In this document: piece after piece, positions 50,806 through 60,157 of the stretch | Numbering within the stretch: the first letter of the stretch is position 1 | Layout: each line of letters begins with the position of its first letter | Assembly: GCF_965641715.1 (NCBI RefSeq) | Contig: NZ_OZ282455.1 | From: Escherichia coli | GTDB lineage: Bacteria; Pseudomonadota; Gammaproteobacteria; Enterobacterales; Enterobacteriaceae | DNA length: 64,000 bases | Strand: one strand, 5' to 3' | The notes under the pieces: model-generated | Told to the model about the DNA's origin: nothing | The model's input: the letters and a program-made list of their open reading frames with translations, nothing else | The model's database searches: none | Program-made: the position numbers and the translations under genes

Positions 50806-51630
50806 TTACCAGGGTAATAAAGACGTATTAAATAAGCTAACAGGTAGTATTTGCCCTGTAATAAGGTTCCCGGCAAGGCCAGGTCTCAACGTGACGCGTC
50901 GCAAAGACATTGTTGTATTCTGCCTGGTTGTATATTCAGTTAACCATTTTCTTTTTTCATCGTTCAGAAGTGTTGGTGATAATGATAGTGCCGGATATAT
51001 TACAGAGCCATTTATTTCTTTTTTCTGTCTCAATATTACCCCGCAATATTCTCTTTTCGTGTTTCCGGCGAAGGGGAAACTATGCCAGAAAATAACTTCA
51101 GTGTTGCTGCTATCACTAATAAGCATTCTGAAATTATCAGCAGTATCTGGCCATTCACCGGACAACGCTATCGGATAGTTTTCATGGCCATTCAGCCAGT
51201 CCGGATTGAGATTAAAACATTCAGCAAGATGTTCGAGAGCGTCAGCTGAAAGATAGTCTGCAAGTCTGGCCGGGTCCTGTATAACCGTGGAGCGGATATT
51301 CCATGGCGACAGCAATGTTGCCAGTAATGGCGCATTTATATCATGCGACAGCATGATGTATTCAATTCTGCTTATTATGTTTCCTGTGGTGTTATCCGCA
51401 GGCATAAACATATTATGAAGAGCATCCTCAAGCAGGATTCGGGTTAAATCAGCGGTGGATATGGCTAATTGTTCGCTCATTATCCCCAGAACTTCTCTTA
51501 CCCCTTGGGGGTAACGGACCTGCAGAGGTGTCGGGTTTATCTGACGACCGTTGATGAGTTTTTCGCCGATTGCTTTTTTGTCCAGCGAGAGCATCATTCG
51601 GGCCGCAATACCGGTCGTATTCAGTCTCAT
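50806..51630 (-). CDS. traE: conjugal transfer protein TraE
   Basis: 274 aa; synteny (between rci and traF). Confidence 0.65.
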   Translation of the reverse strand: MRLNTTGIAARMMLSLDKKAIGEKLINGRQINPTPLQVRYPQGVREVLGIMSEQLAISTADLTRILLEDALHNMFMPADNTTGNIISRIEYIMLSHDINAPLLATLLSPWNIRSTVIQDPARLADYLSADALEHLAECFNLNPDWLNGHENYPIALSGEWPDTADNFRMLISDSSNTEVIFWHSFPFAGNTKREYCGVILRQKKEINGSVIYPALSLSPTLLNDEKRKWLTEYTTRQNTTMSLRRVTLRPGLAGNLITGQILPVSLFNTSLLPW

Positions 51631-51780
51631 TGTTCCTCCGACTGAAAAAGTCTTTTCAGCTCATGTGGTTATTGTATCTTCGGTGTTTTTTCTGGTGAAA
51701 CGAATAATTTCGATCATGCAGATCGAATGTGTTTGGCGAGTTGTTGCAACTCGCCTTTCTGTATGTGTTTTGAATGATGT

Positions 51781-52935
51781 TTACAGCGGGGTGCTGCCCG
51801 GGTTCAGAGGGCAAATCATAATGTAGTCAGGGTCGTTAACAGGTAACGCTCCGGGAGATGGGACACGTTCGCCTTTCTGTGCTGCAATGGCCAGTGTACG
51901 CAACAAAACCTCACTGGCGCGGTGAACTGCTTCCTCTTTCGTTGTGGCAGTGACGTGAAGGTTATCAAAATCACCGATCTCAATACGATGCGCTTTCTGC
52001 CCATTTTCTTCATCGATGGTCGTGATATGGGCAGGATACGGCACAAACCATGCTGCCACTTTTTGTGTCTGCCGCCGGCGGGCATCAAGCTTACTGACCA
52101 GTTGCCATGCACGAAGATGAGTATACCGTTTCAGCATATTCATGGAACGATGTCCTGATATTGCAGCAATCTCCATTACATTCAGGCTACCCAGTTCGAA
52201 GAAGCGGCTTATTGCTTCATGCCGTAGATCGTGAAAATGCAGGTCCTCGATGCGAAGTCGTTGTGTGGCTATTCTCCAGGCATTTTTAAAGCCGGATGCG
52301 GTGTAATCAAAAACATTGCCGTGGAGATTAACGGGCATCATCTGAAGAAAGTTACGGGCACGTCTGGACAGAGGAACATCCCGTGAGTGACCGTTTTTGG
52401 TTTCAGGTAAATGAGCCACACCGTGGCGCAAATCAATGTGCTCCCAACGTAAGGCCAGTATTTCGCCCTGCCGCATGGCTGTCTCAAGGGCAAGATGGAA
52501 AATGACATACAACATCAGATTTTTTTCGCGGAAATAGCGAGAAAGGCGACGTTCTTCTGAAGACGTTAGCCGGCGATCTCGTCCCGAGGATACTTTCGGC
52601 TTGCGAACCAGTTCAACCGGGTTAGTACGACAGGTTCCCCATTCAACACGAGCAATATTGAACAGAGATGACAGAAGGGCGAGTTCAAGACGTACAGTAT
52701 TACCTGTAATGGGTTTACCCGTTCGGGGGTTGATTTCTGCTAAACGAACGTCTCTGTATGTAGCAATATCAACGGTTGTTATTTCGTCCATATTCCGAAG
52801 GGCAATGGGATATCGCTTGATAACATTGCTCCGGTAAAACTCCTGTTGATGCCCTTTCTTGTGAACAGAAACTGTTTTCAGGTACTTATCCAGTGCGCGT
52901 GACAGGGACATTTTACGGATGCGTGGAGACGGCAT
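51781..52935 (-). CDS. rci: shufflon-specific tyrosine recombinase Rci
   Basis: Track ORF 51781..52971; ATG at 52935 gives 384 aa; C-terminal HxxR…Y integrase signature; adjacent shufflon. Confidence 0.9.
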
Positions 52936-52986
52936 GCTAACCTCAAAAGAGGCAAAAAATAATGCCAACAATCATTCTCTGCAAGC

Positions 52987-54595
52987 GTGCCAATCCGGTA
53001 CCTGGGGCGCTCCTAAAATTCAATTCACAACGCAGACCTACAACATAGCTAAAAACACTCGTAATTTAAGGCTCGGGGTCCATGCATATTGCTCATGGAC
53101 TTACCTGAATGGCTCACCCTTTGGTGGTTTTCAACAGGTATATTCCGACCAAAACAACGTTTGGTATGTGAGTAATTATGCTTGGGGAAATTATGAGTCT
53201 GGTGGGACCATATCAGTCACATGCCTCAATCTTCCTGGTGCTGGAGCTTAATTAAAGGGGCAACAGTAGGCATCGACATGTTCCTCATCAACACCATCAC
53301 CAATACCGTACATGCGTGTTCCAGTCATAATGTATCCAGTCGGACATTGAATCGGCTTGTAATAGATCGAACCACCACTCTTACCGCCGATAAAGTGATT
53401 CATTGCTACGGATGATTTGTACCAATTACATGCTGAGTAATTAATTTTATTACCCCCTGACCACCGACCGGATTGGCACTGGCCTACGTGCCAATCCGGT
53501 ACCTGGAAATCATCATCAGCGTCGATATGGACGAATATAAAAACATTTACGTTATATCCCAAAAACACACAGGTCTTAGGGAGGTTTAAACTGTGTATTA
53601 ACACCTATCGTATTGACGGGCGTGAAATGGCAGAAACAGAAGTCGTTCCTATTGACATGCCTGACTCTAACGGCGAGATGACTTGGCAAGCCAAAAACTA
53701 CACACAGTATTCGTCCTACTTTATGAAGATTACTTGCTTGAAATAGCTTATTGGCAAATGGCATATACAGTTATTGAACCATTCTGATCTTCGGTTGTAT
53801 CGCACGCAGCCGACCATGAGTTATTGGCTGATGGGAATGACCTGGTAAGCCATATGTAACCAGTTCGTGAGGTGCATATTCCGCCGCCACCTGTAACACG
53901 TTTTCCAGTTGGACAGGTAGCTGTTGCTCCAGGAAAGCGCCAACCTGTGGCCTGTGCTGTAGCAATTTGAAGCTCACCAGATCCTACCTTTCTCCAGGTA
54001 CCGGATTGGCACGTAGGCCAGTGCCAATCCGGTACGTGGGGGACAATAGGTGGAAAACTCAAAGTTACTCAGCTTTCCACCACAGGTTATCTGGGGCAAT
54101 TCGACTTCTGTGCCATTGCCAGAATGGGCAACGCAGAGGATGCCCACTACTGCCAGGTAGTTGAGAGCCCAGCAGGTTCACGCAAATGGTACAAATACGA
54201 GCATAAGACAGGTTGTATTGCGTCGTGTGTAACGCTCAATTAAGTTTGATATCCAAATACTGAAAATACCCCGGCACCACATGATGTATTTTCTGTTGGA
54301 TAGGATGTTATCTGATAGGAAGTACCTGCAGGTACAGCAAAGCTGATAAAGGCTGTTTTTCCATATGCAGGGTTATTACTGGCATTCACGCTAATTAGCG
54401 TCCCACCAACATATCCCTGCAGTCGGGATGTATTTGCACATGCACCTCCGGCAGATCCTCCATTACCTCCAGATGCATAAATAAACAATGTACTGCCCCC
54501 TGAATTCCGCCCTGAGAATGAACCTCTATGTGAACCTAAGTTTGTGTAAGAACCATTGAGCGAACCAGAAGTCTTCCACGTACCGGATTGGCACG
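52987..54595. other. shufflon (clustered multiple-inversion region for PilV C-termini)
   Basis: At least six copies of the sfx core GTGCCAATCCGGT(N3)TGG in alternating orientation (about 52987-53005 +, 53461-53479 -, 53488-53506 +, 53994-54012 -, 54021-54039 +, 54576-54594 -) bounding three segments; partial ORFs on both strands all read CQSG(T/R)W across the repeats. Confidence 0.85.
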
Positions 54596-55676
54596 AAAGT
54601 ATTGCCCCTGTATTATCGCGGCCTACAAGGCCGTTAGGCGAACATGATGCGCCAGCAACGGCAGTTCTTTCCAGTTGTAAGTATTCACCAGTATAAAGGC
54701 GACCATCAGCCCGAACAGTACCGCCTTTCACCTGACCGCCGGTATAGATGCCCTTGTTGTTTACACTTCGAACCCATGATCCGTCGGACATATAAAATCC
54801 GCCACCGTGAGTTTCATTGAGCCAGCCTTTGCTGTTACGAGTAATTAACCAACCATTATTACTTCTGATATCACCGCCAGCGGTGACATTTACGTCAAAG
54901 TTTCCGCTATTGCCTTTTACCTGACCGCTGAAAGTGCCATTTACACCATTCACATTGCCGCTGAAATTACCAGTCTGGGCATTTACTGCCCCAATGTTAT
55001 TCAGGTTATTTGATCCCATATCAATGGCCGTGTGCATTTTGTTTAAGTCAGGGCGACCATTGACCTGGAATCTGTAAAGACGATCAGTGTCCTCTGCTGC
55101 ACCACTAAGTTCATCTGTCGATAACAGTACGGCAATATGCCCGTTACCGCTTTTGGCACCATAATTACTTAAAGCTACTGACCAGGAACGTAATGCACCT
55201 GTGGCTGTTTTGCCGTCCTGGATATATCCACCAAGACCAGTGGTAATATCCTTAGCCATCTGGATAAGTGCTTTCACTGGATAAGGGGTGCCACCACTGG
55301 ATACAACCATTGCCTGTAGTAATTCCGGGTTTTGGGCGTTTCGAACTACATATGCCTGTAACCGCTGCCCCTCGCTGTTTGTCTCAATAAAGCCGCTGGA
55401 CAAAAAGCCGGTATTTTTCAGCATGGTTGTCGTGATAACGGCAGGGGTTGATGTGGTACTACTTGCCTGGAGAGTTGTGTAGTTTTTCCCTATATAAGAG
55501 CGGGCTGCACTGGCCCAGTTGCTGACAAGACGAGCTTCAGCCTGCCAACCTTTGGTTTTTAAATAGTCCTGCCATATGCCTGCTCCCCAGGCAACTATGA
55601 TCATAACAATCAATAAAGCCGCGCCAATTTCCAGCGATGCCCAGCCTCGGTCATATTTTTTCATCAGATTACCCAT
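54240..55676 (-). CDS. pilV: thin-pilus adhesin PilV (prepilin-like); C-terminus set by current shufflon arrangement
   Basis: 478 aa; prepilin-like N-terminus (RG|WASLE); CQSGTW encoded across the sfx repeat at about 54576..54593; variable segment 54240..54575. Confidence 0.85.
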
Positions 55677-56347
55677 AGTGGTTGATAAAGATTATCCAGT
55701 AGCAAAAGGACATGGCCAAGACACAGCCATGGACCCAGTGGGCCTTCTTTATGTCCTTTTATGCACCATGTTGAATGCCATAAGACAAATCCTCCTGCGC
55801 CCAGCAACACACTCCATATGGCGTTATATAGCCCTGACCATGCGGTAATACCTGCAATAAGCCACAGGTCTCCTGTGCCAATATTAAGACGATGGCGGTT
55901 AACCAGTTTATGCAGACAGAATAAGACAATTGCGGCAGAGACAATTTCTGTTGCACGGAGCCACCATATATCAGTTGTGATTTGTGATAATATTCCAGCG
56001 ATTAAAAAACGCCTGGTGAATGTACCAGGTAAGAGGCCTGTTAGTGCATCCGTTACTGCCATTTGCAGCATGAACGAAAGAATAAGAACAGCATGAATAC
56101 GGTAGAGAAGTTGGGATGGCGATAAAATAATTAATGCCACAGCTATACTATATAGCCATATTCCTGACAGAACTGCAGTGTGTGTCTTATACCAGAGATG
56201 TTCTGTATCAGATAAAAAATAACGAACTCTGAATAACAGAGTTCGTCCAATAATGGAAAATATGAACATCAATGGGAGGATATAAACAGGGGAGAGACTT
56301 ATGCCTACGATTGTCTGCATTGTCTGCCTCCCTGCCCGGGAAGGCAT
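55664..56347 (-). CDS. pilU: prepilin peptidase PilU
   Basis: 227 aa polytopic membrane protein; position downstream of pilT. Confidence 0.75.
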
Positions 56348-56865
56348 ATCCCTTTCATGTCACGATAAATTCTCCATACTTTATTAGCATATTGCTCTCT
56401 TGTTTCATGTCTGTCCTTACGGAATCCGGCATTGTATGATCCAAGGCAATTCCAGCTGACGCCACATATCTGAAAATGTCTTGCCAGTATCCAGCTTCCT
56501 ATATGGATATTAAGACATGGTTTGGTAATTAAATCCTCAGACTTTTTGATTACGCCCATCTTTATAAGCTTTGGAATATGGGTTGAGTTTATTTGCATCA
56601 ACCCATAATCCGTACTACTGGCTTTGCCTGTTTTTCTGTCCTTATTTATGTTAATTGCGCCCGGCTTCAATGAAGATTCCCCGGCAGAAATGGCCTTCAA
56701 CAATAATGGTTCAATTTGATAGCGTGCGCCGGCGGCGGCAAAGCAATTGTCCCACTTGTTAGTCCAGATTTGTTTGGGGGCGATGTATGAAGCTCGGGCG
56801 GGATAAATAAGAGAACAAAGCAGGATTAATGAAATAAGTCTGAGGGGCACTTTACCCCCGGACAT
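56305..56865 (-). CDS. pilT: lytic transglycosylase PilT
   Basis: 186 aa; signal peptide; SLT-domain motifs ES…GLMQIN. Confidence 0.8.
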   Translation of the reverse strand: MSGGKVPLRLISLILLCSLIYPARASYIAPKQIWTNKWDNCFAAAGARYQIEPLLLKAISAGESSLKPGAININKDRKTGKASSTDYGLMQINSTHIPKLIKMGVIKKSEDLITKPCLNIHIGSWILARHFQICGVSWNCLGSYNAGFRKDRHETREQYANKVWRIYRDMKGICLPGQGGRQCRQS

Positions 56866-56874
56866 TAAAACTCC

Positions 56875-57489
56875 TTAGCCATTGATGGTGAAGATTAGTT
56901 TGTTTGTACCGGTGCTGCCATTATCAGCTGTGCATTGCGCACTGGCTTCTTCAGTAGTGACTTTTCCATCATTGTGAGTCGTACTGTTCAGGGTAATACC
57001 GTTAGTTAAACCAGTACGACTGATTTGTGTGGCAATCTGGATACAGGCATCCTGTGGGACTTTTTCATAGGTGACGGTAAAACCATTGTTGAAACCTGAT
57101 GTTGAAGCCGGAGCAACAGTTACGGCACCGCCCCATGAGTTATAGAGCGTTGCAGTACCTGATGATGGAGTACCACGCACTGTCATAGTCTTGGGTACGC
57201 CACCCATCTGAATGAGAGCACCCGTCATTTTGGTTCCACTGGTAAACGTATATCCATCGCTACCTTTTAGCAGCCCCTGAGTACTTGTGATGATTGTCTG
57301 TATGTTCGAGCTTTCATTTGCCACACCGGTTCGTGAACGCAACATATACAATCCACCAAAAACAAGGGCAAGTACGATAATTACAACAAGTGCTATTGCA
57401 CCCTGTTCCATAATACCCCAGCCTTTGTCATGAGACGTTTCTTTCTCATTTTTCTTCAGAGCGTTAACATCAATATTTTGGATTAACAT
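56875..57489 (-). CDS. pilS: type IV (IVB) major pilin PilS
   Basis: 204 aa; long leader then hydrophobic helix (GWGIMEQGAIALVVIIVLALVFGG). Confidence 0.85.
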   Translation of the reverse strand: MLIQNIDVNALKKNEKETSHDKGWGIMEQGAIALVVIIVLALVFGGLYMLRSRTGVANESSNIQTIITSTQGLLKGSDGYTFTSGTKMTGALIQMGGVPKTMTVRGTPSSGTATLYNSWGGAVTVAPASTSGFNNGFTVTYEKVPQDACIQIATQISRTGLTNGITLNSTTHNDGKVTTEEASAQCTADNGSTGTNKLIFTING

Positions 57490-58603: not shown

Positions 58604-60157
58604 TTAGGCATCATCGATGCTGAGGCGTTCGTCTTCGTCCAGAGGGATGATTCTGTCGGCTTCAAGAGGGTCCACCAGGCCTTCATTGATACGGCGAAGA
58701 AGATGCTCTACACGACTGATGCCATGCATGTTTTCAAGCCAGTATTTACGTGCTGCAACTTTGCCGCGTGTTTTCAGAATCTGAAATAAGCGATTATCAG
58801 GTTCTATCACTTCAGCAATTACGGTCCTGCCGGTGAGGCCTTTACCTATTTCACCGCGCTTTCTGCCGTTAATAATTACGTCGTGATTACAGTCGGAGCA
58901 TCCGTGAGGATTTCGGAACCAGATATTATCTGTACTGCAGAGTGAATCTTTATTGCAGTGCCGCTCAAGGTAAGCGCGGTCGTCTTCGCTAAGTTCTGGT
59001 ACTCGCTTTTCCCATGGAATACGGCAGGAGGGACACAGAGTTGGTACAAGACGCTGGCTGATCATCCCAATCAGTAATTGCGCATCGCAAATAAGATCGG
59101 CATTCATACCCATCGTAATCATCCGCTCCGGTATACCCAGAGCTGAGTTTGTATGTAATGTCGTCAGAACGATGTGACCGGTCTGAGCCGCGTAGGTTGT
59201 TGACATCATCGAGACAAGATCGCGCATTTCCCCTTCCATGATGGCATCGGGGTCAAGTCGCATTGCCGATGAAATAGCACGACTCCATGCCAGTTTGACG
59301 GCCTCTTCGTCGGATTTGTCACAGATAATCGGGGTTTGTGTTGCCCCCAGAATCTGTCCTTCCAGCGGATCTTCGATCGTCAGCAGGTGTCGCCCCTGAT
59401 TATCGTCAAGATATACACGGCAGGCACTGCGTAACGTTGTTGATTTACCTGAACCTGTTGGACCAGACAGAACTATTTTCCCTTCCGGGCGGCGCAGCAT
59501 GACGTTCAGCAACCGGATTTGCTCCGGTATAAAGCCCAGTTGCTTAAACGTGGGAACTTTGTCTCCGTCATCGGGTATCAGGCGCATAACTGCAATCAGA
59601 CCATCTCCCGTAGGTCTGTGACTGTATCGTGCACCAAATATTCCTATTTTTCGCATTAATTGTGGGGACAGGCGCGCATCCTGTTCCCTTTGAGGGAAGA
59701 AACTGGTTTCAGTCACATCAGCCATTGACAGAATGGCTGTTGCGCAAAGTGAATAACCCAACGCAGGTTGATCTTCATCTACAGTTTGCAGTTCACCGAA
59801 TATTCTCATGCGAACTTTGAAAATAGACTCTGAAATTAAAAAATGAATATCTGAAGCACCAAGTTTTCTGGCTGTTTCAAAATAGGAGAGAACTTTCTTC
59901 TCACTTTCACTAACATCTGCAAGATCTTTCAGATGAATAATCCGTTCTTTCGGACCTTTATTTTCATCATCCTGACCGGCTTCCTGTAACTCAGACAGCG
60001 AGACTACTTTTGGGGTGATGTCAGGGTATAAGTTTAGCAGTTCCTGGAGATTACTCTGTACGTCAGGTCTTGTTCGCTGATTTGTTTCGATGAGAATTTC
60101 ATGGGTGTCTCCCCGGGATATAAAAAGGAGAGCATCCTTCAAATTATATTTGTCCAT
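58604..60157 (-). CDS. pilQ: type IV pilus assembly ATPase PilQ (GspE-like)
   Basis: 517 aa; Walker A GPTGSGKST; tetracysteine-like motif. Confidence 0.9.
   Translation of the reverse strand: MDKYNLKDALLFISRGDTHEILIETNQRTRPDVQSNLQELLNLYPDITPKVVSLSELQEAGQDDENKGPKERIIHLKDLADVSESEKKVLSYFETARKLGASDIHFLISESIFKVRMRIFGELQTVDEDQPALGYSLCATAILSMADVTETSFFPQREQDARLSPQLMRKIGIFGARYSHRPTGDGLIAVMRLIPDDGDKVPTFKQLGFIPEQIRLLNVMLRRPEGKIVLSGPTGSGKSTTLRSACRVYLDDNQGRHLLTIEDPLEGQILGATQTPIICDKSDEEAVKLAWSRAISSAMRLDPDAIMEGEMRDLVSMMSTTYAAQTGHIVLTTLHTNSALGIPERMITMGMNADLICDAQLLIGMISQRLVPTLCPSCRIPWEKRVPELSEDDRAYLERHCNKDSLCSTDNIWFRNPHGCSDCNHDVIINGRKRGEIGKGLTGRTVIAEVIEPDNRLFQILKTRGKVAARKYWLENMHGISRVEHLLRRINEGLVDPLEADRIIPLDEDERLSIDDA

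Follow-up and report, generated by a model that had tools for sequence, protein, structure and literature searches.

The region at 52987-54594 of the window (the whole 64-kb stretch of DNA analysed here) is very probably, judging from its sequence, the shufflon of an IncI1-type conjugative plasmid in the three-segment A/B/C, ColIb-P9-like form, with an inversion switch that would be active. The identification is made because an Rci recombinase identical to that of R64 adjoins six consensus sfx sites and because pilV carries the Shufflon_N constant region. The five structural traits of the shufflons of I-complex plasmids were all found: i) rci; ii) asymmetric, inverted sfx sites; iii) a pilV that ends in a fixed sfx; iv) start-less tails; v) location in the pil operon. 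Furthermore, exactly segments A, B and C and six sfx sites lie between rci and pilV, as in the ColIb-P9 type; the window lacks the marks of the R64 four-segment type (segment D and a seventh sfx with core TACTTGG) and those of the IncI2 R721/TP114 type (a BD segment and a variable 3-bp patch). Nothing in the sequence is contrary to the shufflon reading. The features are the following.

51781-52935, minus strand: rci, shufflon-specific tyrosine recombinase, 384 aa from the ATG at 52935
52987-53005, plus strand: sfx 1, rci-proximal, arm 52987-52998, core TACCTGG, opens the C tail
52988-53248, plus strand: C ORF, 87 aa from the sfx Cys (GAPKIQ...), named C by elimination
53006-53460, no strand: segment C, 455 bp, tails C and C'
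53478-53251, minus strand: C' ORF, 76 aa, Swiss-Prot SHU6
53461-53479, minus strand: sfx 2, core TCGGTGG, opens the C' tail
53480-53487, no strand: junction 1, 8 bp, TGGCCTAC, between two head-to-head conserved arms
53488-53506, plus strand: sfx 3, core TACCTGG, opens the B tail
53489-53743, plus strand: B ORF, 85 aa, named B by elimination
53507-53993, no strand: segment B, 487 bp, tails B and B'
54011-53751, minus strand: B' ORF, 87 aa (RKVGSG...), Swiss-Prot SHU4
53994-54012, minus strand: sfx 4, core TACCTGG, opens the B' tail
54013-54020, no strand: junction 2, 8 bp, GTAGGCCA, reverse complement of junction 1
54021-54039, plus strand: sfx 5, core TACGTGG, opens the A' tail
54022-54240, plus strand: A' ORF, 73 aa, Swiss-Prot SHU2
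54040-54575, no strand: segment A, 536 bp, tails A and A'
54593-54243, minus strand: A ORF, 117 aa, Swiss-Prot SHU1 (Shufflon protein A), now fused to pilV
54576-54594, minus strand: sfx 6, core TACGTGG, fixed site closing the pilV constant region
54240-55676, minus strand: pilV, present form PilVA, 478 aa from the ATG at 55676, constant region 55676-54595
55664-57489, minus strand: pilU prepilin peptidase, pilT lytic transglycosylase and pilS major type IVb pilin (Pfam Peptidase_A24, SLT and PilS)
Absent from the window, no strand: D' tail, 99 aa in R64, Swiss-Prot SHU7

The 13-mer GTGCCAATCCGGT used as search core occurs in six copies without mismatch, all inside 52987-54594 (52987(+), 53467-53479(-), 53488(+), 54000-54012(-), 54021(+) and 54582-54594(-)), where the initial annotation had proposed at least six sfx repeats in alternating orientation; there are exactly six, and their alternation is strict, which delimits three segments. 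Every site has the form GTGCCAATCCGGT followed by NNNTGG, and the alignment to the sfx consensus that had been suggested as a check succeeded at all six, each matching the 19-bp R64 repeat (GTGCCAATCCGG-T-NNN-TGG) with a perfect 12-bp arm GTGCCAATCCGG. Three of the sites have the 7-bp core TACCTGG, two have TACGTGG and one has TCGGTGG; the 12 bases past each core, compared among the six sites, are mutually unrelated and form the variable other arm. Such conserved arm, 7-bp core and unrelated 12 bases correspond to the published asymmetric layout of sfx, with a conserved right arm, a 7-bp core and a variable left arm (PMC9045228, PMC11852207). In 100 shuffles that preserved dinucleotides, the core search (up to two mismatches) never attained seven matches, and the six perfect 13-mers compare with none expected. 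The outer boundaries are likewise those of the known systems: the left flank of sfx 1 is TTCTCTGCAAGC, the fixed rci-side flank in R64, ColIb-P9 and other relatives, and the sfx 6 flank GGCAATACTTTC is unchanged across all relatives.

An sfx-like 13-mer with two mismatches, GAGCAAATCCGGT, was also seen further into the pil operon (59512-59524, minus strand). It is the sole extra core match with up to two mismatches in the 64 kb, is no more than chance would give (2.24 matches of this kind expected) and has neither a partner nor an associated ORF.

The three segments (455, 487 and 536 bp) are joined by two linking blocks, each consisting of an arm, 8 bp and an arm. From each sfx an ORF runs inward in the frame TGC-CAA-TCC-GGT (C-Q-S-G), so that every segment holds two convergent ORFs, in agreement with the convergent partial ORFs that had been proposed for three segments. 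The tails (73-117 aa; 87, 76, 85, 87, 73 and 117 aa in the order of their sites from 52987 to 54594) are start-less in all six cases, begin with CQSG(T/R)W within the sfx and stay in frame with it. To name them, each tail was joined to the R64 constant region and the fusion was looked up exactly among Swiss-Prot names. Each of the six tails has a counterpart of 100% identity in both R64 and ColIb-P9, and the comparison with R64 PilV that the initial annotation had called for thereby returned A, A', B, B', C and C'. An NCBIfam scan assigned no specific family to any of the six tails.

The segments contain essentially no non-coding DNA. The stop codons of the convergent C/C' and A/A' pairs overlap in a palindromic TTAA (53248-53251 and 54240-54243, respectively), and a gap of 1 nt separates those of segment B (53744-53746 and 53748-53750).

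At the end of the type IVb pil operon, pilV encodes a protein with a Pfam Shufflon_N match over residues 37-365 (E 4.2e-185); the NCBIfam scan of PilV gave only a weak prepilin-like match. Its length is 478 aa, or 474 aa when the ATG at 55664 is taken as in the NCBI PGAP annotation. The sfx at 54576-54594 is in frame at pilV codons 361-367, and the gene continues for 111 codons past the 19-bp repeat (117 from the Cys within it) to a stop at 54240-54242; the initial annotation, which had pilV reading through this sfx into a 111-aa C-terminal segment ending at 54240, was thus correct in both coordinates and length. It had also held that the current PilV variant could be identified, and the identity of the tail to Swiss-Prot SHU1 identifies it: by this sequence match, the variant supplied to pilV in the recorded arrangement is PilVA. 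A same-length ORF with an identical 117-aa tail is annotated pilVA in LC567071, which agrees with this naming.

Relative to R64 PilVA, PilV differs at 12 aa, all in the constant region; 11 of the 12 fall within the first 93 residues (55388-55664), and the variable tails are 100% identical. This distribution suggests a recombination boundary or a lineage difference (IncI1 vs IncI-gamma-like) inside pilV.

The rci gene lies downstream of the shufflon. Its 384-aa product shows 100% identity to R64 Rci and belongs to the Phage_integrase family of tyrosine recombinases (Pfam, E 5.9e-24); with full-length R64 identity, it is the adjacent tyrosine recombinase with an extra C-terminal domain that is typical of shufflons. 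Its start in the mechanical ORF list is further upstream (TTG at 52971), and in relatives the same gene is annotated as rci or as a site-specific integrase. The order of the pil genes matches R64 and p17-AB00090, and the genes from pilM to pilV, followed by rci, traE and traF, are collinear with both. More broadly, the backbone of the window is an IncI1 transfer region (nikB, trbABC, traU/Y/O/N ... traJ/I/H/F/E, pilM to pilV). A promoter scan of 51600-55800 showed no enrichment (six promoter-like sites vs 7.4 expected), and a terminator scan of the same interval found no terminator-like site within the shufflon. When 52900-54700 was compared by megablast with a plasmid collection, 1854 records were retrieved, 1806 of which are predicted to be conjugative.

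The initial annotation had suspected that the segment count might differ from that of the four-segment R64 shufflon. The suspicion was right because segment D, with its D' ORF, is absent and three segments remain: blastn found no hit to D across the 64-kb window, and the core search found no seventh sfx in it. Moreover, 52900-54700 equals CP082483.1 minus the 329-bp sfx-to-sfx D unit of the latter (1588-1916 of the CP082483.1 excerpt, L001), with no mismatch in 1801 nt. Taken with the lack of a D hit, this exact match makes the locus a clean three-segment A/B/C shufflon. Segment D is one-ended, and in every arrangement examined its body is followed by CTGC, TGGCCTAC and the next arm; the D unit is therefore bounded by two directly oriented sfx.

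Reduced shufflons of this kind are documented. R64 carries A, B, C and D, and ColIb-P9 carries A, B and C only (Sekizuka et al., PMC5430464); segment D was missing in all IncI1-ST3 blaCTX-M-1 plasmids studied (PMC8305760); other subsets, such as A-B-D, are also known (PMC8069031). The segments are found in 1274 (A), 1108 (B), 844 (C) and 667 (D) PLSDB records, a graded prevalence (A > B > C > D) in which D is the most often missing and which implies many IncI-type plasmids with reduced shufflons. Since the three-segment form has long been known (ColIb-P9, IncI1-ST3) and is common in databases, the shufflon described here is not a new variant; it is already known and ordinary, with no novelty of substance.

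Because the gap left by D runs precisely from one sfx to the next and these two are direct repeats, its absence is formally an excision, and the D-less state might tentatively be ascribed to precise, Rci-mediated recombination of the directly oriented sfx flanking D, although we regard this origin as somewhat doubtful. Wild-type Rci is not known to carry out excision on asymmetric sfx, and its segments are described as inverted without being excised (PMC11852207, PMC4176322 and PMC9045228). D may equally have been lost by slippage or short-homology recombination, or it may even be a gain and not a loss. If Rci-mediated excision did take place, the graded prevalence of the segments could reflect rare, irreversible loss of cassettes and a progressively narrower recipient range.

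Comparison with named systems places the window closest to ColIb-P9 (IncI1, NC_002122), which has the same six sfx and three segments, six of six tails 100% identical, and likewise no D; its deposited record also expresses PilVA. The two Rci proteins differ by one aa (D308N). The shufflons differ in arrangement (B+ C- A+ in ColIb-P9 vs C+ B+ A+ here) and in both 8-bp junctions, which are opposite; in these two respects they represent different isomers of one kind of shufflon. R64 (IncI1, NC_005014 / AP005147) shares with the window the identical Rci, the sfx arms and cores, the A/A'/B/B'/C/C' tails and the pil context, but it has four segments and seven sfx instead of three and six, the surplus being the one-ended 329-bp D unit with the 99-aa D' tail and the seventh sfx core TACTTGG, all lacking here. 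The IncI2 shufflons (R721: A, BD and C; TP114: four segments and eight tails) follow the same logic: they too have an Rci-type shufflase and asymmetric sfx, their cassettes for the 3' end of pilV are convergent, and they are tied to LPS or recipient specificity (PMC9045228, PMC5430464). In IncI2, however, the right arm of the sfx contains a 3-bp patch that varies, and D' is the partner of B' (per PMC5430464 and PMC9045228, R721 being compared by description), whereas in the window the arms are invariant, B is paired with B' and the backbone is IncI1.

The mechanism proposed for this locus derives from work on R64, carried over here by identity, and its statements rest on later papers that cite the R64 originals. 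According to passages in PMC11852207, PMC4176322 and PMC9045228, Rci that sits on the conserved arm brings a second monomer to the variable one; recombination takes place inside the 7-bp core and requires two sites in inverted orientation, so that segments invert singly or in groups without excision. By extension, Rci produced from the downstream gene would bind the conserved 12-bp arm of each sfx, and any two inverted sfx could recombine in the 7-bp core, leading to inversion of single or grouped segments without deletion. The segment end that faces the fixed sfx would supply the last 73-117 codons of PilV; as the constant region of pilV ends in this site, it is the facing end that decides the PilV tail. 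PilV is expected to act as the tip adhesin of a thin type IVb pilus, and the three two-ended segments would give 48 arrangements and six adhesins. In a block model of the window all 2^3 x 3! = 48 arrangements were reachable, with six adhesins; a formula of the 2^n x n! type is likewise given in PMC5430464. The six adhesins would differ in the recipient LPS core that they bind, and different recipients would consequently be reached in liquid mating. In liquid mating, the PilV variants are reported to recognise different core structures of the recipient LPS, with GlcNAc(beta1-3)Glc of the R1-type LPS core as the ligand of PilVA (PMC5430464, PMC9045228).

The recorded arrangement is rci, C+ B+ A+, pilV, and as a single assembled sequence it represents one isomer. 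Relatives carry other arrangements: B+ C- D+ A+ in R64, B+ C- A+ in ColIb-P9 and D+ B+ C+ A+ in pN441. From the intact enzyme and sites, together with the occurrence of identical segments in other orders in these relatives, we infer that the switch is probably active in this plasmid.

Several smaller differences were seen among the relatives. The head-to-head junction between B and A (54013-54020) reads GTAGGCCA here vs TGGCCTAC in pUA1139 (L002, 2603-2610), in which order and orientation are otherwise equal. A non-standard event was considered for this flipped junction and rejected, as seven ordinary inversions suffice in the block model; a single inversion of the 33-bp block of arm, 8 bp and arm is an alternative. 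In pN441 (LC567071; L003, 1917-1935) the core of the B-tail sfx is GACGTGG, not TACCTGG, a hybrid or mutated core that may be a record of strand exchange between differing cores. The B' tail of pUA1139 (L002, ~2520-2614) is frameshifted, has 63 aa and diverges after ...PGATAT, while the window, R64 and ColIb-P9 all have the 87-aa form. Evidently, silent cassettes can decay.

Three other readings of the locus were weighed. A shufflon that is present but frozen, with PilVA effectively fixed, would fit the one arrangement visible in the window and has a parallel in the IncI1-ST3 blaCTX-M-1 plasmids, whose arrangements were reported as stable in long-read assemblies, with little heterogeneity; the plasmids of that study carry an ISEcp1 insertion (PMC8305760). 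No insertion element was found in or beside the shufflon here; its Rci and the functional enzyme of R64 are identical, the arms of six of six sfx are perfect and their cores known, and identical segments occur in different arrangements among plasmids. With the enzyme and all six sites intact, a frozen switch is therefore highly unlikely. Doubt could also fall on the assembly, since misassembly is documented for shufflons, of which one clone holds many isomers (PMC5430464), and the loss of D corresponds to what a collapse of two direct sfx repeats would leave; the three-segment state or the C-B-A order would then be an artefact of a heterogeneous four-segment shufflon. But shufflons lacking D are real and frequent (the six sfx recur in ColIb-P9, again with no D, and PLSDB holds D in 667 records vs A in 1274), no fragment of D lies anywhere in the window and a clean sfx that fits the consensus stands at the junction, so that an artefactual origin has very little probability. 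The recorded order itself could be a minority or chimeric isomer and not the dominant one, because shufflons are a known assembly hazard.

That the repeats arose by chance, or belong to an integron-like or IS-derived element unrelated to pilV variation, would be in keeping with the bare presence of inverted repeats only. Six perfect 13-mers were observed where none is expected, and the sites are exact matches to R64 sfx, keep the pilV frame and each begin an ORF identical to a known PilV tail. Chance or another repeat-based element is accordingly excluded by the shuffle test, the match to R64 sfx and the identities of the tails. We thus retain the three-segment A/B/C shufflon, with a switch that is presumably working, as the reading of 52987-54594.

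The shufflon sets which recipient LPS cores an IncI1 plasmid attaches to in liquid, and through this choice it influences the spread of IncI1 plasmids, which are major carriers of ESBL and AmpC genes. Nothing in the window alters the current understanding of these systems. Its value lies in annotation: pilV stands in the PilVA state, the locus is a known assembly hazard, and the plasmid has six adhesins at its disposal, not seven.
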